Numbered from the stretch's first letter, positions 2,430-22,210 are shown. The stretch is DNA of 64,000 nt from an uncultured Acidimicrobiia bacterium (GCA_963823505.1 CAWGLY010000008.1:373924-437923), one strand, 5' to 3'. Notes: a model not told the origin generated them from the letters alone. Made by a program: numbers and translations.

Positions 2430-3149
2430 TCACAGCGCCTTGACGAGGAGCCCTACGGCCGCAGTCGTGGAGACGACGAGGATGCTGCGCCTGACGAACG
2501 TCGCCCCGATCTTGCTCGACAAGGGGACGCTGACCGCATAACCCAGTGCCAGCGCCGGGAAGATGATGGCGGCTACCTTCACATCGTCTGCGGTGATCAG
2601 CCCGGCGAGCAGGCGCACAGAGATCGTCAAGACCAGGCCGACGGTGAACACAAATGCGAGGCTGGCGCGGATGGTGGCTGGACCGCGGTCGTGGAACAAG
2701 AGCGCCATCGGTGGCCCGCCCATCGACGCCACCATGCTCGAGACGCCTGCGAACGTTCCCACGAGGAGGTCGGTGGTACGGCCGCGGGTGACGGTGACAT
2801 CACGGGCACGGATCGCCACGCCCGCCAGCACGAGTGCGGCGATGAGCACATCCAGCGACCTTTGCGTGGCCACGAGCACCAGCGTCACACCGATGGCTGC
2901 TCCGGGCAGTCGACCGATGAGGACCCACGTGACCCCGGCGAGGTCGGCATGACGCCGTTCCCTGAGTCCCATGAACAAGGTCAGGGGAAGCACCACCAAG
3001 AGTTGGGGAACCGGCGCCAGCGTCGGATTGATGAGCGACAGCAGCGGCACAGATACCACCGCAAAACCGATCCCAACCATTCCCTGGGCGAGCGCCGCAG
3101 CGAACGTGACGACGAGCGCGGCGATCACGTCGAGCGTAGAGAGGTCCAC
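2430..3149 (-). CDS. TauE/SafE-family sulfite/anion exporter (DUF81) membrane protein
   Basis: 239-aa polytopic membrane protein with the typical TauE/SafE glycine-rich helices. Convergent with the HTH gene; the two stop codons are adjacent. Confidence 0.8.
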   Translation of the reverse strand: MDLSTLDVIAALVVTFAAALAQGMVGIGFAVVSVPLLSLINPTLAPVPQLLVVLPLTLFMGLRERRHADLAGVTWVLIGRLPGAAIGVTLVLVATQRSLDVLIAALVLAGVAIRARDVTVTRGRTTDLLVGTFAGVSSMVASMGGPPMALLFHDRGPATIRASLAFVFTVGLVLTISVRLLAGLITADDVKVAAIIFPALALGYAVSVPLSSKIGATFVRRSILVVSTTAAVGLLVKAL

Positions 3150-3416
3150 GGGTCTTCAGCTCGCCATCGCTGGAGGCGTCGTCGCCGGGACACCCGCTGC
3201 AGAGCAAGCCAGGCCGTGCCGTCTGCGAGCGCGACTGCGCGGCCGGCGCAGCGCACAATCCTGCCTTGGCGTTTCCGTGGTGGACACTGGTGCCGGCCTT
3301 CCTGCGACGAGTCCACGAGTATGGCAGTGCGGCGCTGTGCGCCTGCACGAAACAGGCACCGTCCGGAGCGGCCGACTGATGCGGACTACGGGAGCCGTGC
3401 AGCTAGCGTCTCGGCT

Positions 3417-4256
3417 ATGGCACGAGTACTCGGCATCTTCGTCGCGGCTGCGCTCGCCCTCGCTGCCTGCGGCAGCTCCGATGCCACGTTCCCCGACGAA
3501 GCCTTTGCGATCCGTGCCTCTTCGGACCTCGGCGTCGGTCCCGACCGTCTCTTGTTGGGTATAGGGGACGACACCGGCGCCAGGCTCGGATCGCCGGATG
3601 ACAACGTCACGATTGCGGTCCACCCGGAATCTGATCCCGCTGCGGTTCAAGAGGCGCCCGGAGTGTGGACGTGGATCGTCCCAGACGGTGTTGGGTTGTA
3701 CCGCGCCGCATTCGACTTCGACAGTGCCGGCATCTGGGTGGCCACGGTTTCCCCTGCGGCCGGGGACCCGCTCGAGCCTGTCCTGTTCCAGGTGCAAGAC
3801 GACCCCTTTGCCCCGGGGATCGGCGAGACGGCACCCGTCGCTCCGACCCCGACGCTGTCCGACATGACGATCGAGGAGCTGACCACGGACCCGGAGCCCG
3901 AGCTTTCGTTCTATGAGATGTCGCTCGAGGAGGCTGTGGCGTCAGGCCGGCCGACGGTCTTGGTGTTCTCAACGCCGGCCTATTGCCAGACGGCGGCGTG
4001 CGGTCCGTTGCTCGAGACGGTGAAGGACGTCGCTCCTCTCCACCCCGACGTCAACTTCATCCACGTCGAGGTGTACACCGGTCTGACCGACCAGGACTTT
4101 GCGCCTGACGCCGCCCACGTCGCACCCGCTGCCGGAGAGGAGTGGTACTCGTTGCCTTCGGAGCCGTGGGTTTTCGTCATCAACGAGGCCGGGATGGTCA
4201 CCGGGCGTTTTGAAGGTGTGATGGACGCAAGCGAACTCGAGGCGATCCTGCCATGA
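3417..4256 (+). CDS. secreted lipoprotein with thioredoxin-like C-terminal region (Cys-X4-Cys), immediately upstream of ctaC
   Basis: ATG at 3417, in frame inside the supplied 2691..4256 ORF. Signal peptide plus lipobox (LALAACGSS). C-terminal PTVLVFSTPAYCQTAACGP resembles Sco/TlpA-type thioredoxin folds. The upstream part of the supplied ORF is non-protein-like. Confidence 0.5.
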   Translation: MARVLGIFVAAALALAACGSSDATFPDEAFAIRASSDLGVGPDRLLLGIGDDTGARLGSPDDNVTIAVHPESDPAAVQEAPGVWTWIVPDGVGLYRAAFDFDSAGIWVATVSPAAGDPLEPVLFQVQDDPFAPGIGETAPVAPTPTLSDMTIEELTTDPEPELSFYEMSLEEAVASGRPTVLVFSTPAYCQTAACGPLLETVKDVAPLHPDVNFIHVEVYTGLTDQDFAPDAAHVAPAAGEEWYSLPSEPWVFVINEAGMVTGRFEGVMDASELEAILP

Positions 4257-9583: not shown

Positions 9584-10327
9584 TCAGCCGGCCGAGACGT
9601 CCCGGTCCCGATCCCATGGCCGGTAGGCGAGCAGCGCCGCTCCACCGAGCACCAAGGCGCCCGCCGCGCTGAAGATGACCACGGCCATGGTGGCCGTTGC
9701 CTCCAGCAGGATCTGAGCGAGCCCAACGGCGAACACGCCCCCGATCACGACGGCCATGATGGGGAGCCCGACCGCACGTGTCATCGCTCCCATCAGGTCG
9801 CGGACGCCGCTCGGCCAGGCAATGCCGCCAAGTCCCAGCATGTCGGGTCGGGCCAAGCGATCGACGATGAAGGCGGTCACAGCTCCTGCCACGGCCCCGG
9901 AGCACAGTGCGATCAGGACGAGTTGGGACACCGATACGACAACGATCCCAGCCGTGATGTCGGCGAACAACCCCAGCCCGGCACGAAACGCCGAATACGC
10001 CGCGATGCCGGAGACAAACCCGGCTATGGGCAAAAGCCAGCGGAGCGGGAACTTCGGCGCGTCGGGCTCGCTTTCCCTGCCGACCGCGTAGGTGATGCCT
10101 GCGATAGCGAGGCCACCAAGAACGCCTGCGAGGAGCACCAGCATGTACATCCCGCCGCTCGATGCGACAAAATCGATCGACGCTCGCGGGCTGCCCTCGG
10201 CGACCGGTGTGGCTACGGCGGAGGCAAGAGCGAACCGCCCGCCCAGCAGGGCGACAGCGATCAGACCGAGGAACCCTCCGGCGACGGCACCGTACAGCAC
10301 GGCTCGAAAGCGGCTCTTTGTCGACAC
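9584..10327 (-). CDS. hypothetical polytopic membrane protein
   Basis: 247 aa with 6-7 predicted TM helices (Gly/Ala-rich). No recognisable family. Confidence 0.45.
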   Translation of the reverse strand: MSTKSRFRAVLYGAVAGGFLGLIAVALLGGRFALASAVATPVAEGSPRASIDFVASSGGMYMLVLLAGVLGGLAIAGITYAVGRESEPDAPKFPLRWLLPIAGFVSGIAAYSAFRAGLGLFADITAGIVVVSVSQLVLIALCSGAVAGAVTAFIVDRLARPDMLGLGGIAWPSGVRDLMGAMTRAVGLPIMAVVIGGVFAVGLAQILLEATATMAVVIFSAAGALVLGGAALLAYRPWDRDRDVSAG

Positions 10328-10453: not shown

Positions 10454-11356
10454 TCAGAACCGTCCGCAGGCGTCTGGGGCGTAGATCCCCTGGACGGTGT
10501 CGTCGGTCGTGAGGGGCCCCCACAGGAGCAACGCCCCCGTGTTGGTGCTGTAGAGCTCCCAGAGCGCTCCCTTGTCGGGGTCCTCGACCTGGCGGATGTC
10601 AAACCCGTCGTACACCTGTTCCAGTTGCCGGTACGACGCACCTGCCTGCAGCCCGCTGAGCGTCTGCAGATTGGCTGCTTCACTCGAGAACCCGCCAAAT
10701 GCAAAGTCGAGCCGGTACCCGGCAAACGTCTCGGTCCCGTCTGGATCGACGACGACGATCGCCGCAAAAGGTCCCCACGCCGCAACACGTTCGGTGTCCC
10801 CCTCGCAGACACCCCACTCGCCAACCGAGAGCTGTGGCCCCGTGTCGGAGTCGGGGTCTCCCAAACTCGATACCAGCCGGCCGAGGGCATCGGCGGCGGG
10901 TTCACCGAACTTGATGTCACCAACGCCGTCAACGGCGAGCGTCAGATCCTCGATGGCGATCGGGGCGCCGACGGGGAGATATGGGGCCGCCACGATGCCC
11001 GGGTCGCCACCGGTTCCCGCATCCGTGCCCGACGTGTCACCCGTGTCATCGGTCGGTGCGGCTGTGCTGCTCTCCGTCGCACCGTCACTCGTCTCCGCAG
11101 TGGCCGACGATGCTTCTTCGCTGCCAGCCACGACGGGGTCATCCGAATCGTTCCCGAGCAGCTGGAACAACGCGATGCTCACTACTACGAGCAGAAGGCC
11201 AAGGACGAGCCCGGTGAGGAGCGGAGAACGTGGTGCGATGGCAGGGGGAGTCCTCGGATCCTCGAGTGACGGCAGCGGCTCGCTACCCGTGAGCCCTGCG
11301 AGTTCCTCGTACGGCTGGATCCCAGAGAAAGGGTCATTGTCGCTTCGGTCGGTCAC
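10454..11356 (-). CDS. membrane-anchored hypothetical protein with Ser/Thr-rich linker and C-terminal domain paralogous to C-terminus of 13529..15391
   Basis: GTG start at 11356 preceded by AGGAG. TM helix LLTGLVLGLLLVVVSIALF. C-terminal about 160 aa share LGRLV...LWGP...GIYxPxxC with the C-terminus of the 620-aa protein upstream. Confidence 0.5.
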   Translation of the reverse strand: MTDRSDNDPFSGIQPYEELAGLTGSEPLPSLEDPRTPPAIAPRSPLLTGLVLGLLLVVVSIALFQLLGNDSDDPVVAGSEEASSATAETSDGATESSTAAPTDDTGDTSGTDAGTGGDPGIVAAPYLPVGAPIAIEDLTLAVDGVGDIKFGEPAADALGRLVSSLGDPDSDTGPQLSVGEWGVCEGDTERVAAWGPFAAIVVVDPDGTETFAGYRLDFAFGGFSSEAANLQTLSGLQAGASYRQLEQVYDGFDIRQVEDPDKGALWELYSTNTGALLLWGPLTTDDTVQGIYAPDACGRF

Positions 11357-11485
11357 CTTCACTCCTGGCTGTGCGGCTCTTGGCGCCGGGCCGCACGATG
11401 ATCGCGTATCTTACGAGGCCCGGGGGATAGGCGGCGGTTTCTCGGCGTGGGACCGCACGTGCGTTTGGCGAGGTTCGTCGATCGA

Positions 11486-13444
11486 TCAACTCTGAGGAGC
11501 GCCCTGCCCAGTTCGGTCTGTGGATGCACTTTCACGGTCGGCGGCGAGGTCGGGGTACCCGTCCGCGAGAACCTGATCGAACGACGCGGTGGGGACCAGG
11601 ATCGAGGCCCCCGACGAGGTGCGATCGCTGGCGACCGGGATGCTCAGGCTGACCACGGTCGTCGGATCGATGTCGCGAAGGCCCCAGGCGAGGCTGATGG
11701 CGTCGGTGAGCCCGAGTTGATTGTCCAGCGTGAATGCGTCCGTGAGCGAGCGGACGGTGCCCGTCAGGTCGCTCGGGGAATCGAAGGTCCTCAGCTTCGA
11801 GAACATCTCGAGCAGCACTTCCTGTTGCCGCTCGTTGCGGGTGATGTCGCTGACGTTGGCCATCGTTCGCCACCGCCCGTCGACCAGCTCCTGGGTACGA
11901 CGCGACCGGACCCAGGACAGCGCCTGCGCTCCGGTTGCCTGGGTGCAACCGGCAGGCAAATCGAGATCGGACTTGCTGTCGCGCACGGCATGTTCGACGC
12001 AGATTTGGATGCCGCCCACTTCGTCGATGATCTGTTCGAAGCCGTCGAAGGTGAAGAGTGCGAAGTGGTCGATGGGGATCCCGGTGAAGTCGGTGACGGC
12101 CAACGCCAGCAGTGTCGGCCCGTTGACGTCGTCGCCGCAGCCGTTCAAGTTTGCGTTGAGCTTCGTGTAACTCTGGGTGCACCGATTCGGCAGGTACAGG
12201 TCACGGGGAAGGGAAACCAGCATCGGCTCCGAGCCGTCTCCCGGCAGGACGGCGAGCATGATCACATCCGCCAAGCCGCCGGACAGGTCGCTTCCGATGA
12301 TCAGCATTGACAGGTAGTCGCCTTCGGCGGCAGGAACGGCCGTGACCACAGATGCCGTCTCCGGATCAACCTCGGCGTCGACGATGCCCTCGGTGGGAAG
12401 CAACAGGAGGTCGTTGGCGTCTGCAGTGTCGAAACCCTCCCGTCCGACGCCTGCCCACGAGTCCCACAGCTGCAGGCCGTTCCACCCTGTGTAGGCGAGC
12501 AGTACGAGCACTGCCGTCGCCACGCCGCGCTTGAGGCTGCGGAGGATCGGGTGTTGATCGATCGACTTCGGGCTCGGCGCGGCTTCATTGATGAGGAACC
12601 CAACGGCCGGCGCACCGACCCGATCGGCGCGGTCGCACGCCGATTCGAGTGCCACGCGGTCGGCGGCTTTGGGGAGCACCAGGAGCGTGCCGTCGGCAAC
12701 GGCTCCGAGGGCGCTGGTTGCGGCTCCGTTGGTGGGTGCCGTGTCGATCAGTACGAGGTCCGCCGCCGTCGTGACGTCCTCGATGGCGCCGGCCAGCGCA
12801 ATCCGGTCGATGCTGCCGTTGATGGTGGCGCCACCCGAGGGGACGAAGGGGAGGCGGCTCGTGCCGTCGATGGACCACAAGCGAGCTGCGTCGCGCAGAG
12901 TGGCGTCGCCTGACGCGATGTCGGACAGGCCCGGACTGGTGCCGGTTCGGCCAAACCGGCTCAGGTTGCCGCGGCCCACATCACCGTCGATGAGCAGGGT
13001 GCGCCGCCCCGCCTTGGTTGCGGCGACGGCGAGGTTCAGTGCAGCAGAAGTCGCGCCTTGGCCGGCCTCGATCCCTGCCACGAGCAGGACCCGTCCAGGG
13101 GTGGCGGCCTCGAGCCGGCTCGCCGCTCGCTGGTAGGCGGCTGCGGCGGAGCTCGACGGGTGGGTGAGCGTTGGCGCCGGGCCATCGATCGAGTCCGGGA
13201 TGGATCCGACCTGGGGCAGGTCGACCAGCTTCTCGACAGGGCGCAGGCCGGCGAACTGGTTCCATATCAGCCACACGATCGCCGAGACGAGGCCCCCGAC
13301 CGCAGCTGCGATCACGGCGCCCCGGTTGCTGTCCCACACCTGGAGCGCCAGCGCGAACGCCACCAGGCCGGCGGCGACGGCGGCGATGTTTTGGGGTGCG
13401 AAGAAACGGCGAAAGAAGCCGTTCTTGTGGGACTGATCCCTCAC
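11486..13444 (-). CDS. fusion protein: N-terminal 2-TM anchor + BY-kinase/MinD-like P-loop domain with degenerate Walker A + TM + C-terminal LytR-CpsA-Psr (LCP) domain
   Basis: BY-kinase-like motifs: LLIDGDVGRGNL (Walker A'), LPFVPSGG, DLVLIDTAP (Walker B). The Walker A is GIEAGQGATS, with no Lys. LCP motifs: LSMLIIGSDLSGGLADVIMLAVL, VSLPRDLYL, IPIDHFALFTFDGFEQIIDEVGGI. Confidence 0.75.
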   Translation of the reverse strand: MRDQSHKNGFFRRFFAPQNIAAVAAGLVAFALALQVWDSNRGAVIAAAVGGLVSAIVWLIWNQFAGLRPVEKLVDLPQVGSIPDSIDGPAPTLTHPSSSAAAAYQRAASRLEAATPGRVLLVAGIEAGQGATSAALNLAVAATKAGRRTLLIDGDVGRGNLSRFGRTGTSPGLSDIASGDATLRDAARLWSIDGTSRLPFVPSGGATINGSIDRIALAGAIEDVTTAADLVLIDTAPTNGAATSALGAVADGTLLVLPKAADRVALESACDRADRVGAPAVGFLINEAAPSPKSIDQHPILRSLKRGVATAVLVLLAYTGWNGLQLWDSWAGVGREGFDTADANDLLLLPTEGIVDAEVDPETASVVTAVPAAEGDYLSMLIIGSDLSGGLADVIMLAVLPGDGSEPMLVSLPRDLYLPNRCTQSYTKLNANLNGCGDDVNGPTLLALAVTDFTGIPIDHFALFTFDGFEQIIDEVGGIQICVEHAVRDSKSDLDLPAGCTQATGAQALSWVRSRRTQELVDGRWRTMANVSDITRNERQQEVLLEMFSKLRTFDSPSDLTGTVRSLTDAFTLDNQLGLTDAISLAWGLRDIDPTTVVSLSIPVASDRTSSGASILVPTASFDQVLADGYPDLAADRESASTDRTGQGAPQS

Positions 13445-13528
13445 TACGTCATCCTCGGGGGTTGCGGCGATGACCGGGCTGGGCTCATGTTACGGTGCCC
13501 TGGCCTGAGCCATGTTACGGCGTGCGCA

Positions 13529-15391
13529 TCAGCCCGTTGGTGTCGGGCCTGAATCGCACGGTTGGGGAGAATAGATCCCCTCGATGATCCCTTCCGGGTC
13601 GGTCGAGGATACCGGGCCCCACAGCAGCGTCGCGTTGTCTGACGTCCGCTGCAGGATGAAGTGTGTGGTGCCGTCGATCTCCTCGTACGACACGAGGAAG
13701 GTGGCATAGGTCGTCTCCAGGTCCTCGACCGTGTCCCCTACCTGAAGTCCCGACAGCGTCTCCAGGCCGGTCGCGGGGTGAGCTTCGCTCCCTGAGTCGA
13801 CCCTGTAGCCCTCGAACACCGAGAGATCTTCGACCCCGAGGAAGATGCCTGTGAGGGGTCCCCACGACGCAAAGAAGCCCGCATCACCATCGCACAGGCC
13901 GAGTGATGTATCCGCCGGGCCCCGCTCGTCCGGTTGCCCGAACGTGGCCACCAGCCGGCCGAGGGCGTCATCGTCACCAAAGTCGAGCGGTCCGAGCGCA
14001 AAGCCGCCAAGACCCAGATCCCCGATCGGGATCGGGTCTCCGATCGGCTCGATCGGGGCAAGGCTGGTTGTCGTCGTTGTCGAGGTGGTTGTCGACGTGC
14101 TGGTCGTCGGGCCGGCGGTGGTGGCGGTCGAGTCGTCGACCACGGTGGTCGACACGTCCGTGCCAGCAGGTGCGGCAACGTCGGCGGGGGTTCCGTCGTC
14201 GCGAGTGATCCATGCCAGCACCACGAACCACGCCGCGATGATGCCCACGATGATCAACCCAACGATCAGTCGCTGTGACATGTTGCTGCCGCTTCCTGAG
14301 CCACCTCCTGGTTCTTCAGGGGCTGCGAAGAAGTCCGACTCGTCCGGGTGCTCGCCGGGGAAGGAGCCCGATGGGCTTGGGCTCACCGGAGTTGTCACCG
14401 CCGGTGCTGCCGTGGCGGCCGCGATGTCGGCGGCTGCGTCGGGATCGGAGCCGGCAAAAGCCGACCACGCATCCTCATCGTCGAGCATGTCATCAGATGC
14501 GGCGCTTGGATCCACGTCGCCGATGCCGGCGTCGTCGAAGATGTTGTCGATCTCGTCCTGTGGGCCGCTGTCGCGAGCAACGGCTGCCGCGCCGGCGAGC
14601 GCCCCTCCGGCGAAAACATCGTCGTGGTCCACATCGGGCACCTCTGCCATGGGGTCGGTCATCGGTGGTTCGGCGATCGGCGGTGTGACGGGCGGCACGA
14701 TGGGGTCGGGATCGGCGGCCACGATGGCGGGGATCTCGATCGAATCGGCATGATCGATCGCATCGGCATTGTCTACGGGGCCGGCATTGTCTACGGGGCC
14801 GGCATCGTCTACTGCTTCGGCAGGAGGGGCCGGCTCGTCGGCCGGGTGCTCGCCGGGGTCGGCGAAGGTCTCGTCCACGGGCGTCTCGGGAGGTGGAGGA
14901 GCTGCTGGGATCGGCGCCGGATCGGCGTCGACCCAGGTCATCGGGGGTGGTGCGGCGGCGGTGGGGGCGGCAGCCTCCGCAACGGTCTCTTCGGCCGTTG
15001 CGGTTTCCTCACCGGACGCAACGTCCACCAGGTCACGGTCGCCGGTCCCGTCTGCCTCTTCGCCATCGGTGACGCCCTCCTCTTCGAACGTCGACGAGAC
15101 GATCGCAGCCATCGCAGCGCTGCCGACCTCCCAGCCGGTTGCGGTGTCACCCGCGTCGGTGCGAGACGGCTGTGCAGTCGGGGGCGGCGGTCCGGTGGGA
15201 GGTTGATCATTCGGCTCGGTGTCGGCACCTGCCTCCACGGTCGGCTCGGCCGCTGCGGCGGTGTCGTCCTGCGGGACCGCAGGGGTGGCGGCATGCGCAT
15301 CGATCCAGCCTCTCCCGCAGGAGGGGCAGGTTTCGGCGGCGAGGGGTCGGTCTTTCCCGCAGAAGATGCACGGCGTAGAGAAGGTATCCAT
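13529..15391 (-). CDS. zinc-ribbon / disordered acidic-proline-rich / single-TM / Thr-rich protein with C-terminal domain paralogous to 10454..11356
   Basis: ATG at 15391. N-terminal CIFCGKDRPLAAETCPSCGRG zinc ribbon. About 350 aa of low complexity. TM IVGLIIVGIIAAWFVVLAWI. Poly-Thr/Ser stretch. C-terminal domain homologous to the gene at 10454. Confidence 0.55.
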   Translation of the reverse strand: MDTFSTPCIFCGKDRPLAAETCPSCGRGWIDAHAATPAVPQDDTAAAAEPTVEAGADTEPNDQPPTGPPPPTAQPSRTDAGDTATGWEVGSAAMAAIVSSTFEEEGVTDGEEADGTGDRDLVDVASGEETATAEETVAEAAAPTAAAPPPMTWVDADPAPIPAAPPPPETPVDETFADPGEHPADEPAPPAEAVDDAGPVDNAGPVDNADAIDHADSIEIPAIVAADPDPIVPPVTPPIAEPPMTDPMAEVPDVDHDDVFAGGALAGAAAVARDSGPQDEIDNIFDDAGIGDVDPSAASDDMLDDEDAWSAFAGSDPDAAADIAAATAAPAVTTPVSPSPSGSFPGEHPDESDFFAAPEEPGGGSGSGSNMSQRLIVGLIIVGIIAAWFVVLAWITRDDGTPADVAAPAGTDVSTTVVDDSTATTAGPTTSTSTTTSTTTTTSLAPIEPIGDPIPIGDLGLGGFALGPLDFGDDDALGRLVATFGQPDERGPADTSLGLCDGDAGFFASWGPLTGIFLGVEDLSVFEGYRVDSGSEAHPATGLETLSGLQVGDTVEDLETTYATFLVSYEEIDGTTHFILQRTSDNATLLWGPVSSTDPEGIIEGIYSPQPCDSGPTPTG

Positions 15392-15449: not shown

Positions 15450-17480
15450 TCAGAGCAGCGGGCGAAGTTCGGCAGGCGAATCGACGGGAAGTGCGCAAAC
15501 GAAGTCCCTGCACACATACGCCGTGGCCCCGGCTTCGCCTGAGGGGCGGCCCGACAACAAGGGGACGGCGGTGGCCGTTCCCTCGCCGACGGCGAGGACG
15601 CAACCGGGTCGAAAGCGTTCCCAGACGACCTCTACCAGTTCACGCCTGGCTTCTGGCCGACCGACAATGGCGACTTCTTTGGGGCCTACCAGGCCGGCGG
15701 CCAGCACTGCTGCGAGGTACCCCACGGCGGACGGGTGCTGTTCGAGCAGGCGGCCGGCGGCGATGTAGACCCCGTCGAGGAGGCCACGGAACGAGGCATC
15801 TCCTGTGTACGCGGCTGCCATCTGAAGCGCTTCCGCCATGAGGGTGTTGTCCGAAGGCGTGGGATTGTCCATCAGGTTCTTCGGTCGCGTGATGAGCTCT
15901 TCTGCGTCTTGCCCTGTTGCGAAGAACCCGCCGGCGGGATCGGAGAAGAGGTCGATGGCCTCGCCGACCAGACGGTGTGCCTCCGAGAACCACCGTTGGT
16001 CGCCCGTGACCGCAAACAGCGTGAAGAGGCCTACCGCGAGGGCGCCGTAGTCGTCGCAGAACGCGGCGGGCCCGAGGACGCCCCTGCGCCAGGTCCGGAC
16101 AAGGCGCCCGTCGTCTCTGCGGAGCCGGGTGGTGGCGAACTGGGCGAGCTGCTCAGCCACTTCGACATACTCGGCCGATCCCAGCACCGCTCCGGCCTCG
16201 GCGAAGGCTCTGAGTGCCAGACCGTTCCACGCGGTGACGATCTTGTCGTCCGTGGCAGGCCTGATCCGGTCCGACCTGGCCTTGCGCAGCGTCCCGGCAG
16301 CGGCGTTCAACCGCTCCTCGACGTCGCCGGGCGTCATGCCGAAGCGTTGTGCCAGCACCTCCACGGTCTCGGCACGTCTCAGCACCGTTCTTGCGCCGTC
16401 GAAGTTGCCCTCTGGGCTCGCTCCGAACGCCGCCGCCACCAACGGCAGGTCGGGGCCGAGCAGCGCATTCAGCTCGTCCCAGGTCCACACGTAGTAGGTG
16501 CCCTCTTCGCCCTCCGAGTCGGCGTCCTCCCCGCTGTAGAAGCCGCCCGCCGGGTCCCTCGAGTCGTGCAGCAGGTACGCAAGGGTTTCCTCGGCAACTT
16601 CGCGGTACCGCTCGATGCCGGTCTCCTGCCACCCCCTCAGGTAGAGCCGTGCGAGTAAGGCATTGTCGTAGAGCATCTTCTCGAAATGCGGAACGAGCCA
16701 TTGCCGATCGACGCTGTAGCGGCTGAAGCCACCGCCGAGCTGGTCGTAGATCCCTCCGGCAGCCATGCGATCCAGGGTCGTGGTGATCATTCCCCTCACC
16801 TGATCCTCATGGTCGGGAGTCAGCTCGAGCGACCAGGCTCTGAGAAGCAACTCGAGGTTCGGCGCTTGCGGGAACTTGGGGGCCCCGCCGAAGCCACCGT
16901 GATCCCAGTCGAATTGCCCGATGAGGTCGACAACGGCTTTCCGTATCACCTCCGCTCCCGGGGCCGTGTCGCCTGGAGGTATCCCGGAGCGAACCGCCGC
17001 CACGAGACGTGAAGCCTGACTCTCCAGCTCGGCTCGCTGCGTTGCCCATGCGTCGACGACGCTCTGCATGATGCGGCCAAACGATGGGTGGTGACCCTGC
17101 GACTCCTTCGGGAAGTACGTCCCCGCAAAGAACGGCTCGCCTGCGGGAGTCAGGAAGACGGTCATCGGCCAGCCTCCTCGGCCCGACATGGCTTGCACGG
17201 CATCCATGTAGATCCGGTCGACGTCCGGCCGCTCTTCACGATCGACCTTCACGTTGACGAAGTGCTCGTTCATGTAGGCCGCGGTGCTGTCGTCCTCGAA
17301 CGACTCGTGGGCCATCACATGGCACCAATGGCACGTGGCGTAGCCGACGGAGAGCAGGATTGGGCGGTCGAGTGTCTGGGCGGCGGCGAAGGCGTCTTCC
17401 CCCCACTCGTACCAGTCGACCGGGTTGTCCTGATGCTGCAACAGATACGGGCTGGCCGAGGAGGCGAGACGATTGGGCAT
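15450..17480 (-). CDS. thioredoxin-domain protein YyaL family (DUF255 + six-hairpin glycosidase-like domain)
   Basis: ATG at 17480 ([27 protein letters not shown]...). CHWCHVM thioredoxin-like motif. The long C-terminal alpha/alpha-toroid region is typical of YyaL/SSP411. Confidence 0.85.
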
Positions 17481-17710
17481 CGCCGCACCGTAGCGTGTGT
17501 CGATTGGCTGGGAGACCGCCGCACGACCGGGAATACCGGCGCCAGACCCGCGGTTGACCAAGGGTTGCGGCGATTCCCACGAGAAAAGGGCTTCACAAAG
17601 CTCTCGTTGTATGTGATATTGAGGCAGGTCCGACCTTGTGATTTCGTTCACATTCTCCCCCTTCGGGCCAGACCAGGGACTGTTCTAGGGGTTTCGGAGG
17701 ACTTCTTTTT

Positions 17711-18757
17711 ATGGCGGCGAGCAAAGCGCGTGACAAGGTCATGGACCGAGCGGTCCGTGAGCGTCAGGAAGCGAAAGAGCGAATCGAACGAGACACCCTG
17801 TCTCGGTCCCGACGCGATCGCGACCGCAACAAGCTCACCGACGAGCGTGGCCGGCTGACCACCGATCTCGTCAGCCAGTATCTCACCGCCATCGGCGAGT
17901 ATGAGCTGCTCACTGCTGAGAAGGAAGTCGACTACGCCCAGAAGATCGAAGCGGGTCAGGACGCCGGCGAGAAGCTCGAGAAGAAGCAGTTCAAGGGCAA
18001 GGCCGAAGAGATGGCGCTGCGCCGTCGGGTCCGTCACGGCCGTGAGGCCAAAGATGCGTTCCTCACTGCCAACCTCCGCCTCGTCGTCGCCAACGCTCGG
18101 CGCTACGCCAACACGTCCGGCATCGACTTTCTCGACCTGATCCAAGAGGGCAACCTGGGCCTCATCCGTGCCGTCGAGAAGTTCGACTGGCGCAAGGGCT
18201 TCAAGTTCTCCACCTACGCAACATGGTGGATCCGGCAGGCCATCACGCGCGCCATCGCCGACAAGTCTCGGACGGTGCGGATACCTGTACATCTCCACGA
18301 CACCCTTGCGGCCGTTCGTGCCGCCCAGGCCAGCCTCAAGGCCGAGCTCGGTCGCGAGCCCAAGCCCGAAGAGATCGCCGAGGAGGCCGGTGTCAACGTC
18401 GACAAGGTCGAGCTCGCCCTCGGTGTCGCCGACACCGTCTCGCTCGAGCAGCCGGTCGGGGAAGACGGCGCCCAACTGGGTGACTTCATCGAGGACGAAG
18501 ATGCCATCGACCCCGTGAGGGTCACCGAAGAACTCGACATTGCGAACAGCCTGCGCAAGTCCATCGAGCGTCTACCGGTCCGCGAAGGCCGCATCCTGGC
18601 GCTGCGCTACGGCTTCTACGACGGCGTGCCCCGTACTCTCGAAGAGATCGGCGAGGAGTTCAACCTCACCCGAGAGCGCATCCGCCAGCTCGAAAAGCTG
18701 GCGCTGTGCCGCCTTCGCCACCCTTCCTTTGGGATTCGGGAGCAAGACCTGCTCTGA
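17711..18757 (+). CDS. RNA polymerase sigma-70 factor, principal-like (group 1/2), compact with basic N-terminal extension
   Basis: Regions 1.2-4 are conserved ([50 protein letters not shown], region 4 [10 protein letters not shown]). 348 aa. Confidence 0.9.
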
Positions 18758-19246: not shown

Positions 19247-21637
19247 TCAGGCCGTGGGGATCCACACCAAGGTCAGGTCCTCGATGTGGATGTCGGTCTT
19301 CTCGAGTGGCACCTCGATGGTTTCGATGTCGGCGCCGACTTCTTCCCACTCGTCGTTGATCGCCTCGAGTTCCTCGACCATCTCGGCCTCGAGCGCAGCC
19401 ATCTCCTCCCACTCGGTGACCGCCTTGTCCTGAGCACTGCGGAGACGCTGTTCCTTGTTTCGCGTCTGCTGACGGCGGCGAGCCGATCCGGTGACGGACC
19501 GGGTCGACTTCTTCCCCGTGAGGATTCCAATGAGCGCACCGGCGCCTTCGAGCAGCTCGCTCTGTTGTGCTCCGCCCACGTCGACCTCGAGTTCTGCGAC
19601 CCGCCGCTCGGCTGCTTCGTACTGCTTCTTGGCGGTACGGATCCGAGCCTCGTACTTGGTGCGGAGCTTGGCGACCTGCTCGTCGGCACGGTCCTCAGCT
19701 GCGGCATCGCACCGGGCGGCGAAGTCTTCCTGACTCTCGCCGGCTCGCGAGTAGAGCTCGAGCTTGGTGTTCTTCTGGATGGCGAGCTTCCTGGTTCGGT
19801 ACAGGTGCTCCTTGAGCGAGGTTGCCGCCGAGGCGAAGAAGGTCTTGGTGTCGATGGGTTCTGTCGGGAGCTCGTACACCGCACCCTCAGGGCCGGCAGG
19901 ACCGAAGTCACGGTCGTCGTAGTCGACGTGCACGAGCGCATCCGTGTCGAACCCGTCGCCAATGGGCGCGATCGCTTCCCATTCCTCGGCGTGGTCGAGG
20001 CCGGCAGCACGATCGTCGTAGATCAACTGGACTCTCGCCGCCAGCGCTGCCACGAGGCGGGCGCCGTCCTCGTCGCCGCCAGCGTCATTCAGCCAAGGGG
20101 CACCTGGTTGAACGTGCAGGACCGCCACGCCTTCGGCGACATGCGGCATCACGGGGGTCTCATCGGCGGCGAGATCTGGCGCCGGCGCCTTGGGTGCGGA
20201 CACGGCGTCCCCCTGAGTGGGCTGTGGCGGGGCATCGGGCGCCGCACCGGGGCGGCCACCCTGAAGCTCTGCAACCTGATCTCTGGTGAGCGGGCCCGCC
20301 AGGTACGAAAGTGCCCAGCGGGTGGTGAACTGCACAGGCTCGGCGTCACGGGTGTTGTGCAGGAGAAACTGGCGCTTGCCCAGTCCGGAGATGGTGGCGT
20401 CGAGGGCGCTGACATCCGTGTCACCTCTCGCCGATTGCAGGGCCTCGAGGATGCGCGCCTTGTCACGCTCGGTCTGGAGCCGCCCTACACACCAGGTCCC
20501 GGCGTTGGACATCGCCTTGTAATCGAGATCGACAGGGTTCTGCGTCGACAGGAGCATTCCCACACCAAAGGCACGCGCCTGCTTGAGGATCGTGAGGATG
20601 GGCTTTTTTGCCGGCGGCTCTGCGGTGGGCGGCACAAAGCCGAACACCTCGTCCATGTAGACCATCGCCCGCAGATCCCCGCTCCCCGGCTGGGTGCGCA
20701 TCCACGTGACGACCTTGGAGAGGATCAGCGTGACGATGAACTGGCGCTCCTCGTCGGAGAGATGGGCCAGGTAGATGATGGCGGCCTGCGGCTTGCCCTG
20801 CTCGTCCCAGAGCAGTTTGCCGGCGTCGAGGGGGGCACCGCTCACCCACTCGGCAAACGATGGCGACGCCAGCAACCCGTTGAGCTGCATCGCCAGCGCC
20901 ATCCTCTCCTTCTCCGGGTAGAACGCATCGAGCTCGAAGACGCCCAGCTTGCGCAGCGGAGGGCGCTGGATGTGGGCAAGGAGCGTCGCCAGATCCAGGT
21001 CCTTGCCTTGGCGCCACGCATGCTCGATCAGGCTGGCGATGAGGATGTGCTCCTTGGAGGAGATGGGGTCGGCATCGAGGCCGAGCAGGCCGAGCAGGCC
21101 GGAGGCAAAACCTTCGATCTCGTCCCGCAGGTGCTCCGCGTCGGTGTCCCAGTCCATGCCGGGGTTGCGCAGCGAGCCGACGATGTTGATCGGAACTCCC
21201 GCACTGGAGCCTGGGGTGTAGATCGTAAATCCTGTTCGCTCGTGCAACTCAGCGATCCGGGAGCCGTCCTGGCCCCATGAAGCCAGCCCGCTCTTCCACA
21301 GCTCGGCCTTTTCGCCTGCCAGCTCTGCAGTGGTCTTACCCGCCTTCCGGGCCTCGGCGGGGTCGACCCACGGCTCAAAGTCTGCAGGTAGCAAATCGGG
21401 GAAGGTGAGGAGCAGGTTCGTCATGTCCCCTTTGGGATCGAGGATCAATGTGGGAATCCCCTGGAGGAGCGCCTCCTCCAGGTAGATGATGCCGAGGCCG
21501 GTCTTGCCCGAGCCCGTCATACCCACGATCACCCCGTGGGTCGTGAGGTCGCTGGGGTCGTAGTCGACGAGGTGGTCGGTTCGGTCGCCGCTCGACGGGT
21601 CGACTGCGGCTCCGAGAAACAGACCTTCCGTGGTCAC
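19247..21637 (-). CDS. HerA/FtsK-superfamily (DUF87-like) P-loop ATPase with long C-terminal Pro/Ala linker and coiled-coil region
   Basis: GTG start at 21637 with AGGAGGA SD 5 nt upstream. N-terminal Walker A GMTGSGKTG followed by LILDPKGD (HerA-like). Walker B MVYMDEVFGF. The LSTQNPVDLD motif is present. The last about 370 aa are Glu/Arg/Ala-rich heptad-like coiled coil. Confidence 0.7.
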   Translation of the reverse strand: MTTEGLFLGAAVDPSSGDRTDHLVDYDPSDLTTHGVIVGMTGSGKTGLGIIYLEEALLQGIPTLILDPKGDMTNLLLTFPDLLPADFEPWVDPAEARKAGKTTAELAGEKAELWKSGLASWGQDGSRIAELHERTGFTIYTPGSSAGVPINIVGSLRNPGMDWDTDAEHLRDEIEGFASGLLGLLGLDADPISSKEHILIASLIEHAWRQGKDLDLATLLAHIQRPPLRKLGVFELDAFYPEKERMALAMQLNGLLASPSFAEWVSGAPLDAGKLLWDEQGKPQAAIIYLAHLSDEERQFIVTLILSKVVTWMRTQPGSGDLRAMVYMDEVFGFVPPTAEPPAKKPILTILKQARAFGVGMLLSTQNPVDLDYKAMSNAGTWCVGRLQTERDKARILEALQSARGDTDVSALDATISGLGKRQFLLHNTRDAEPVQFTTRWALSYLAGPLTRDQVAELQGGRPGAAPDAPPQPTQGDAVSAPKAPAPDLAADETPVMPHVAEGVAVLHVQPGAPWLNDAGGDEDGARLVAALAARVQLIYDDRAAGLDHAEEWEAIAPIGDGFDTDALVHVDYDDRDFGPAGPEGAVYELPTEPIDTKTFFASAATSLKEHLYRTRKLAIQKNTKLELYSRAGESQEDFAARCDAAAEDRADEQVAKLRTKYEARIRTAKKQYEAAERRVAELEVDVGGAQQSELLEGAGALIGILTGKKSTRSVTGSARRRQQTRNKEQRLRSAQDKAVTEWEEMAALEAEMVEELEAINDEWEEVGADIETIEVPLEKTDIHIEDLTLVWIPTA

Positions 21638-21787
21638 ATTTCCTCCTGGCTGGGACTCCGGAGAGTGTAGGGAACGCTTCAAAGGACACGCCGTGGCCCG
21701 GCATGCGCCGGTCGTCCCAAGTCTCACGACACTTCGGTGAGCAGTGTCTAGGCTCCGCACATGGAAGCGATACCCAGCCCGCAGCAC

Positions 21788-22210
21788 ATGAGGGCGTGGC
21801 GGTCCAGCCTGACGGCGCATTCTCGGATCGTGGCCCGTATGTCTGACGACCTCGTGCGCGAGGCGCGGCTTCCCTTGCCCTGGTACGAGGTGCTGCTGTT
21901 GGTGAAGGAGAGCGCAACAGGGCAGCTACGGATGCACGAGCTCGCCGACTCCCGGTTGTTGAGCCGAAGCGCGGCGACACGGCTCGTCGATCGGATCGAG
22001 CGGGCGGGGCTCGTCACGAGGATCGCCGCAGAAGAGGATCGGCGGGGAACCTTCGTGGAGCTGACCGACGACGGTCTCGCTACATTGCGGGCCGCGGCAC
22101 CCATCCACCTGCGCGGCATCCAGGACTACTTCGCCGCCCAACTCAGCGACGACGAGGCCGTCATGGTGGACGGCGTGATGCGTCGCATGGTCGAGGCACT
22201 CGCCAACTGA
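21788..22210 (+). CDS. MarR-family transcriptional regulator
   Basis: Winged-HTH pattern (LPLPWYEVLLLVKESATGQLRMHELADSRLLSRSAATRLVDRIERAGLVTR). Divergent from the HerA-like gene. Start may be 21761 or 21788. Confidence 0.7.
   Translation: MRAWRSSLTAHSRIVARMSDDLVREARLPLPWYEVLLLVKESATGQLRMHELADSRLLSRSAATRLVDRIERAGLVTRIAAEEDRRGTFVELTDDGLATLRAAAPIHLRGIQDYFAAQLSDDEAVMVDGVMRRMVEALAN

Follow-up and report, generated by a model that had tools for sequence, protein, structure and literature searches.

A conserved three-gene envelope locus of uncultured Acidimicrobiia encodes an LCP domain fused to a predicted BY-pseudokinase

Introduction

The LytR-CpsA-Psr (LCP) proteins described so far consist of a short cytoplasmic tail and one transmembrane (TM) helix ahead of the LCP domain, sometimes with an extracellular accessory or LytR_C domain (PMC7831098). 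How the cytoplasmic synthesis of capsule and wall polymers is coupled to their attachment by LCPs on the outside is still unresolved in Gram-positive bacteria. [quoted passage not shown] Here, we describe a locus in which these two families meet in one protein. It lies in a 64,000-nucleotide stretch of DNA (the window) from an uncultured Acidimicrobiia bacterium (GCA_963823505.1 CAWGLY010000008.1:373924-437923) and consists of three co-directional minus-strand genes at positions 10454-15391. We will use the names A for the downstream flanking gene (10454..11362), B for the central fusion (11486..13444), and C for the upstream flanking gene (13529..15391), and the same letters for their products. 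The open reading frames (ORFs) were recovered at exactly the coordinates given in an original prediction made from the sequence alone. On balance, we favor the reading that B is an active LCP phosphotransferase built on a Wzc-derived pseudokinase scaffold, with A and C as two accessory bitopic proteins.

Several other described systems bear on this locus. The BY pseudokinases EcpK of Myxococcus xanthus and HfsB of Caulobacter crescentus have been proposed to serve surface-polysaccharide machinery as scaffolds that do not depend on phosphorylation (PMC12004946). In Mycobacterium tuberculosis, Cei and VirR are bitopic LytR_C-only proteins linked to the LCP pathway (PMC7831098). In Actinomyces oris, LcpA glycosylates GspA, a sortase-anchored surface protein encoded beside LcpA (PMC6381275). 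Our literature search found no description of an LCP-BY-kinase fusion, which agrees with the original view of this architecture as undescribed, and the word "kinase" is absent from both a 2008 survey and a 2021 review of the LCPs.

Architecture and Topology of the Central Protein

B is a single uninterrupted ORF of 652 aa, and a database protein of equal length matches it at 100% identity; databases name it no more than "LCP family protein". Its homologs comprise 335 matches overall, with more than 120 full-length clusters (~640 aa) at 47-79% identity. Pfam places LytR_cpsA_psr (PF03816) on residues 392-551 with an E-value of 7e-29 and 101.3 bits (cut-off 24.6), and the NCBIfam model TIGR00350 reaches 81 bits (cut-off 62.3). 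AAA_31/CbiA is placed by Pfam on residues 119-256, with AAA_31 at 27.5 bits against a cut-off of 27. Together with the NCBIfam matches to BY-kinases described below, these assignments bear out the claim that a BY-kinase-like domain and an LCP domain share the ORF 11486..13444 and that no frameshift or stop separates them.

The distribution of the fusion has been followed in a synteny scan of GTDB species representatives, which returned 80 loci, all from metagenome-assembled genomes (MAGs) and mostly labelled Acidimicrobiia. The fused P-loop and LCP gene is present in 74 of them. A fusion created by joining two genes through a sequencing error has nothing in its favor beyond the prior that attaches to MAG-derived sequence, while the uninterrupted ~640-aa ORF occurs in the more than 120 clusters and in the genomes of 74 species, which come from numerous independent assemblies and include the closed chromosomes OY970200.1 and OY970227.1. 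An artefact of assembly, annotation, or frameshift was accordingly ruled out, and we give such an explanation practically no credence.

The AlphaFold2 (AF2) model of the whole protein has a mean predicted local distance difference test (pLDDT) score of 80.8. It contains two N-terminal TM helices, TM1 (residues 17-36) and TM2 (residues 40-65), separated by a loop of ~3 residues, a Rossmann-type domain (residues 78-296), a long helix that includes TM3 and a juxtamembrane part (residues 299-331, 12452..12550), and the LCP domain (residues 377-630). The N-terminal hairpin (13250..13396) is delineated by AF2 secondary structure, hydropathy, and positive-inside residues, with basic residues found before TM1 and after TM2. 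TM3 is preceded by a conserved RSLKR sequence in which R302, K305, and R306 are kept in 116, 110, and 121 of 121 homologs, respectively (all residue statistics for B given here are from 121 aligned full-length homologs), and the LCP domain contains four cysteines that are invariant in the whole set. Because of the basic residues around TM1 and TM2, the RSLKR sequence, and the four invariant cysteines, the P-loop domain is assigned to the cytoplasm and the LCP domain to the outside. The model is consistent with this predicted topology, in which the LCP domain is extracytoplasmic behind a TM helix. The order of cytoplasmic P-loop domain, TM helix, and extracytoplasmic LCP domain had been foreseen; the N-terminal hairpin, by which the N-terminal half of the AF2 model becomes Wzc-like with no periplasmic polysaccharide co-polymerase (PCP) domain, had been overlooked. 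A PCP role for this hairpin was considered and rejected on the absence of a periplasmic domain and the ~3-residue loop.

The two halves of the model match different families of known structures. Foldseek aligns the C-terminal half best with A. oris LcpA (5v8c; 4e-18, template modelling score 0.74 on the target), followed by TagV, Cps2A, TagT, and S. aureus LcpA, and the N-terminal half with full-length Wzc chains (~2e-13 over ~265 columns).

The LCP Domain

The LCP domain of B (residues 376-630, 11555..12319) has its catalytic residues intact. D393, R414, D415, R513, R515, D533, R536, and Q540 are each found in all 121 homologs, and R539 in 109 of them. A. oris LcpA is also the best PDB sequence match of the domain (6e-17), and in the alignment with 5v8c R414 of B corresponds to LcpA R149, and R536/N537 to LcpA R265/R266. 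R149 and R266 are essential in A. oris LcpA, whereas R128A is tolerated (PMC6381275). On the strength of these intact motifs, the best-supported reading is that B would be a catalytically competent LCP phosphotransferase.

Among unfused LCPs, the closest relatives of B are encoded in Acidimicrobiales MAGs. They are ordinary single-TM LCPs of ~405 aa in unrelated contexts, and no gene for a P-loop partner was found beside them.

The BY-Kinase-Fold Domain

The P-loop domain of B (residues 75-296, 12557..13222) has a BY-kinase fold and is predicted to be cytoplasmic and catalytically degenerate. For residues 118-289 the best NCBIfam models are those of BY-kinases (TIGR01007, 6e-15; EpsG, 2e-13; Wzc, 2e-11), and the MinD, BcsQ, and CpaE-type models rank after them. 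The bit scores of the BY-kinase models are far under their curated cut-offs (55.3 against 108 for TIGR01007, 50 against 314 for EpsG, and 43 against 1068 for Wzc). PDB sequence matches include BceF (1e-14), Wzc (6e-11), and CapB (2e-9), as well as VpsO and Etk, with FleN (6e-10) and MinD (5e-9) interleaved among them, and the alignments to CapB and Etk reach into the helix ahead of the P-loop. The deviant Walker A motif of MinD/ParA, KGGxxGK[ST], is absent from B, where neither lysine is present. An identity as a MinD, ParA, or CpaE protein was rejected on the lower scores and the missing deviant Walker A, and the sequence comparisons point to derivation of the domain from BY-kinases rather than from MinD/ParA.

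The catalytic motifs of BY-kinases have been lost in part. The degenerate Walker A of B (residues 124-133, 13046..13075) reads GIEAGQGATS and has Ala131 where lysine is canonical; in the HMMER alignment this alanine faces the lysine of the BceF GIGKS motif. Position 131 is occupied by alanine in 105 homologs, serine in 9, and threonine in 7, and never by lysine. No lysine occurs anywhere in the P-loop window of any of the 121 homologs. The Walker B position is Asp in 85 homologs and Asn in 36, and the Walker A' Arg shows no conservation among the homologs. A C-terminal Tyr cluster is absent: the 30 residues that follow the domain contain 0-1 Tyr, beyond which the chain runs straight into TM3. 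At the approximate equivalent of the ExxRxxR motif (~residues 101-110, A/x/Y/x/x/A/A, aligned by eye to the CapB motif) there is no conserved Glu or Arg. Other positions have been retained: the DxD of Walker A' is kept (D153 in 121 and D155 in 120 homologs), G130 is present in all 121, Ser or Thr is kept at 132-133, and N137 is invariant in a 20-sequence alignment. Compared with the window protein, the homologs average 49% identity in the P-loop domain and 65% in the LCP domain. The near-invariant residues and the full-length ORF in 74 species indicate that the domain clearly remains under constraint.

Because the Walker A Lys is lost in 121/121 homologs, Walker B is Asn in 36/121, the Walker A' Arg is unconserved, and the Tyr cluster is missing, the best-supported reading of these sequences is that the P-loop domain is a pseudokinase, with a BY-kinase fold, no Tyr tail, and a partial motif loss that leaves the DxD in place. 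An active kinase was ruled out as the main reading by the same motif statistics. It could be argued that the domain remains active as an NTPase or kinase through non-canonical chemistry, for example with a catalytic Lys or Arg supplied in trans by a neighboring protomer or by C, so that B would be a kinase-regulated ligase, as the original prediction implied. The Mg2+- and phosphate-binding residues that are kept (G130, Ser/Thr 132-133, D153, and D155) and the full-length retention of the domain in 74 species speak for this alternative, which is nevertheless quite improbable in view of the losses listed above and of the BY-kinase profile scores, such as the 55 against 108 bits of TIGR01007. 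The pseudokinase reading changes one element of the original prediction. Its fusion of two activities stands as an architecture (P-loop, TM helix, LCP domain) with intact LCP motifs, but not as a kinase activity, and regulation by tyrosine phosphorylation finds no support with the kinase motifs and the Tyr cluster lost.

The Flanking Proteins and Their Shared Domain

A is a protein of 302 aa in which a short N-terminal part in the cytoplasm leads into a TM helix (~residues 48-69, 11156..11221, hydropathy peak 2.84), followed by a Ser/Thr/Asp-rich stalk and a C-terminal domain (residues 121-302, 10457..11002). In C (620 aa), a predicted cytoplasmic C4 zinc ribbon is followed by a disordered region and then by a TM helix (~residues 375-397, 14201..14269, hydropathy peak 3.0), a Ser/Thr-rich stalk, and a copy of the same C-terminal domain (residues 441-620, 13532..14071), which was delimited by BLASTP against the copy in A. 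The TM helix and the Ser/Thr-rich stalk ahead of the shared domain, both part of the original description, are seen in A and in C. Each protein has one strong TM helix and is predicted to be N-in/C-out bitopic. The C-terminal regions are 39% identical over 180 aa (E-value 8e-27), so the flanking genes are indeed paralogous. One hundred ortholog clusters of A were found, of ~300 aa, all of them annotated "hypothetical" and with no Pfam match.

The zinc ribbon of C (residues 8-25, 15317..15370; CIFCGKDRPLAAETCPSC) follows the pattern C-x2-C-x10-C-x2-C. The pattern is kept in 63 of 70 orthologs, the other seven being truncated or frameshifted, but the match of Pfam Zn_Ribbon_1 (PF13240 / DZR) to the window protein remains below the cut-off (E-value 0.27; 11.5 bits against 25). 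The acidic, Ala/Pro-rich disordered cytoplasmic region that follows (~residues 31-370, 14282..15301) is defined by composition; residues 31-385 are rich in A, P, D, G, and E (A 20%, P 14.6%, D 13.5%) with a net charge of -72. This segment, described originally as ~350 aa of acidic and Pro-rich disorder, is present in the window protein but not general: the orthologs of C range from 303 to 715 aa and are mostly ~320 aa, and the 355-residue Ala/Pro/Asp-rich segment is, on these sequence comparisons, a lineage-specific expansion. Among loci L001-L075 the disordered linker is hugely variable, and the zinc ribbon is fixed, as are the TM helix and the C-terminal domain.

The domain common to A and C is ~175 aa long, somewhat more than the 150 aa first given, and remains unassigned, as had been stated. 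No Pfam match is found even at E-values up to 10, no PDB sequence matches it, and Foldseek finds no significant neighbor in the PDB. Its predicted structure, two helix-plus-sheet repeats, is confident (pLDDT 94.2, predicted template modelling score 0.89). In an alignment that includes the C copy, C66 is invariant and C179 is present in at least 90% of the sequences; two conserved cysteines fit an oxidised extracytoplasmic location. The domain defines a new small family that is predicted to be extracytoplasmic.

A full scan of 1.84 billion representative proteins with a hidden Markov model yielded 491 members of this family. The domain is always C-terminal, and most members are bitopic with a layout like that of A and C. 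Rarely, the domain is joined to other modules, either CarboxypepD_reg repeats or a response-regulator-GGDEF-GT2 protein, and these fusions hint at a general envelope or polysaccharide role of the domain. Examples in which it forms the C-terminus of such response-regulator-GGDEF-GT2 glycosyltransferase or CarboxypepD_reg proteins are P0344 (1114 aa), P0291, and P0325. A third, more distant subfamily of ~260-276 aa ends in GGFGCGE (L081 6001-6807, L085 6001-6792, and L086 1390-2220) and is found with an ACT-domain protein, DUF3048, and an amidase; a Peptidase_S26 (SodX-type) gene is near in L081-L083 and L086, and Ni-SOD in L081-L083. An LCP linkage of these distant members was ruled out, their context being SodX - X - ACT - DUF3048 - amidase.

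The long Ser/Thr-rich extracytoplasmic stalks raise an alternative in which A and C are the substrates of B, which would glycosylate their stalks or their shared domain as LcpA does GspA. The nearest solved LCP by both sequence and structure, A. oris LcpA, glycosylates an adjacently encoded protein (PMC6381275), and the near-obligate linkage of A, B, and C described in the next section would also fit. However, the likeness to LcpA may reflect actinobacterial ancestry, since the identity is only 26% and TagV, TagT, and Cps2A score nearly equally. GspA is sortase-anchored (PMC6381275), whereas an N-terminal TM helix anchors both A and C, and the pseudokinase and the zinc ribbon would be left with no role. 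We consider this alternative unlikely.

Conservation and Neighborhood of the Locus

The gaps between the neighboring genes of the trio are 84 and 123 bp. Long spurious ORFs overlap the trio in other frames, as expected at the ~66% G+C of the window, and the status of A, B, and C as real genes is backed by homologs and profile matches. A scan for promoters and terminators gave nothing informative.

The three-gene order recurs in other genomes. Counting only loci whose contig leaves room, a C-type gene lies directly upstream of B in 69 of 70 loci (61 of these with a detectable zinc ribbon), and an A-type gene lies downstream within 1.5 kb in 59 of 62 and anywhere downstream in 61 of 62. The order of the trio holds across 41-79% identity. 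Four trio-bearing contigs (L026, L039, L053, and L069) come from MAGs labelled Gemmatimonadales, Saprospiraceae, Kiloniellales, and Acidobacteria, labels that are probably binning errors.

The trio is part of a wider common order: a divergent sigma70 gene, DUF255, C, B, A, a 247-aa membrane protein, and ctaG-ctaF-ctaE on the other strand. In the 74 loci the outer neighbors were detected less often (DUF255 in 32, ctaG in 40, and sigma in 50), although the lower counts are partly due to contig ends. The gene for the polytopic membrane protein (9584..10327) is co-directional with the trio and lies 126 bp downstream of A; its product is Gly/Ala-rich with multiple hydrophobic segments and no Pfam match, and it is syntenic in 45 loci. 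From synteny alone, it is a possible fourth member of the module. On the other side, a 733-aa thioredoxin-like protein of the DUF255/Thioredox_DsbH type is encoded at 15450..17651 on the minus strand, ending 58 bp upstream of C, and may be co-transcribed with the trio. The sigma-70 gene (17711..18757, plus strand), with regions 1.2-4, is divergent from the DUF255-C-B-A block and is 87-96% identical in most related MAGs, its neighbors being far less conserved. Farther away, an 857-aa ORF at 19247..21820 on the minus strand has a weak match to HerA/DUF87 ATPases (4e-6), and a 521-aa ORF at 2691..4256 on the plus strand has no Pfam match.

The synteny also bears on a reading in which the N-terminal module of B is a mere anchor or localisation tag (septal or polar, like ParA/MinD) that has no link to glycopolymers, and A and C are unrelated to B and kept in place by core-genome order. 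The whole region from sigma70 to ctaGFE is syntenic and general collinearity could partly explain the trio; proteins of the MinD/FleN type do occur as secondary matches of the P-loop domain. This reading is improbable for three reasons. C and A are steadier companions of B than the outer neighbors, with the reservation on contig ends given above; A and C are paralogs that flank B, which argues for a local duplication inside a functional unit; and BY-kinases outscore MinD/ParA, whose KGG-type Walker A is missing.

Proposed Function

In the mechanism favored here, B would transfer an undecaprenyl-pyrophosphate-linked glycopolymer to peptidoglycan, or possibly to a protein. The usual single-helix anchor of an LCP would have been replaced by a Wzc-derived module made up of a PCP-less TM hairpin and a BY-kinase-fold domain. 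This domain would no longer hydrolyse ATP or phosphorylate tyrosine, although binding of a nucleotide or some other phosphate ligand may persist. By analogy with the proposals for EcpK and HfsB, its most likely function would be that of a cytoplasmic scaffold or oligomerisation platform that links cytoplasmic partners with the ligase outside the cell. A and C would be paralogous N-in/C-out accessory subunits in contact with B, whose long Ser/Thr-rich stalks set the shared domain beside the LCP domain. This disulfide-containing extracytoplasmic domain may be a non-enzymatic binding fold, and the zinc ribbon of C could contact the pseudokinase in the cytoplasm.

A more elaborate version of this mechanism, which is offered tentatively, is a new trans-membrane machine for wall-polymer ligation. 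In this machine, a ring or dimer of pseudokinase domains on the cytoplasmic face would gate or position the extracellular LCP ligase of the same polypeptide, A and C would be obligatory subunits bearing a new extracytoplasmic binding domain, and C would be wired to the cytoplasm via its zinc ribbon. If true, the locus would provide natural gene-fusion ("Rosetta stone") evidence of a direct contact between a BY-kinase module and an LCP, which has so far only been inferred in streptococci and staphylococci.

Several observations weigh against the favored mechanism. The neighborhood of the trio is of core-genome character (cytochrome oxidase, sigma factor, DUF255), with no glycopolymer synthesis genes adjacent, and for the latter reason we do not retain the original description of the locus as "self-contained". 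A Wzc-like octamerisation of B is not supported because the ExxRxxR motif is unconserved. The first LCP arginine, equivalent to LcpA R128, is Leu in the window lineage (residue 391, 12272..12274), and the equivalent position is Arg in 70 homologs, Leu in 42, and Ala in 7. The LCP linkage belongs to the A and C subfamilies and is not intrinsic to their shared domain, because distant members occupy a different conserved context. Finally, all carriers are uncultured MAGs, and the case is built on sequence and predicted structure.

The conservation of the fusion across ~70 species supports a direct physical coupling of the BY-kinase and LCP families, as far as this can be read from genomes. That the domain has been kept although its kinase motifs are lost suggests that scaffolding, and not phosphorylation, is the part that matters in B, which agrees with the BY-pseudokinase concept (PMC12004946). 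For an uncultured Acidimicrobiia lineage, the locus offers an initial look at how the envelope is assembled, and it turns a long-suspected functional link between BY-kinases and LCPs, on computational evidence, into a testable physical one.

Comparison with Known Systems

B resembles the known LCPs, including A. oris LcpA (5v8c), B. subtilis TagV/TagT, and S. pneumoniae Cps2A, in its LCP fold, in the Asp/Arg/Gln active-site set, and in the predicted position of the domain outside the membrane behind a TM helix. It differs from the described LCPs by ~330 N-terminal residues, which contain the TM hairpin, the BY-kinase-fold domain, and the third TM helix, and by having no LytR_C domain. The cysteines of the LCP domain recall the stabilising Cys pairs of actinobacterial LCPs (PMC6381275), but are found at other positions.

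With the Wzc-type (PCP-2a) BY-kinases, such as E. coli Wzc/Etk, B. cepacia BceF, and S. aureus CapA/CapB, B has in common a pair of TM helices ahead of a cytoplasmic BY-kinase-fold domain. Unlike these kinases, it has no PCP domain, no Walker A Lys, no conserved Walker A' Arg, no ExxRxxR motif, and no Tyr cluster; its Walker B residue is D or N, and its C-terminus is extended by a TM helix and an LCP domain. The pseudokinases EcpK and HfsB likewise have a BY-kinase fold with no Tyr tail. Catalytic motifs are lost in EcpK and HfsB and partly in B. EcpK is a stand-alone cytoplasmic protein and the partner of a separate, kinase-less PCP-2 protein (EpsV) in the Wzx/Wzy pathways of Gram-negative bacteria, and has lost all Walker motifs (PMC12004946). 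Within the conserved neighborhood of the trio, no PCP gene was found. In contrast, B keeps the DxD and mostly the Walker B Asp, is predicted to be membrane-integral, and is fused to a putative ligase instead of being paired with a co-polymerase.

The flanking proteins A and C resemble Cei and VirR in their single TM helix and extracytoplasmic accessory domain, but they have no LytR_C match and are encoded beside the LCP gene. Their shared domain can be compared with E. coli YfeY (DUF1131, 2qzb), B. subtilis YjgB (DUF4309, 4ygt), TsiN (9j9w), and BLIP-like tandem alpha/beta repeats; the identity is only 10-14% and these matches are non-significant, and the domain fails sequence-profile membership in the YfeY/DUF1131, DUF4309, and BLIP-like families.

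A further parallel is found in the CpsA-CpsC-CpsD and LcpC-CapA1-CapB1 systems of streptococci and S. aureus, in which, as in B, members of the LCP and BY-kinase families are genetically linked, and have been proposed to cooperate (PMC6441080). In those systems an active kinase is present and each component is a polypeptide of its own, whereas in B a single polypeptide carries the LCP domain together with a kinase domain that is predicted to be dead.

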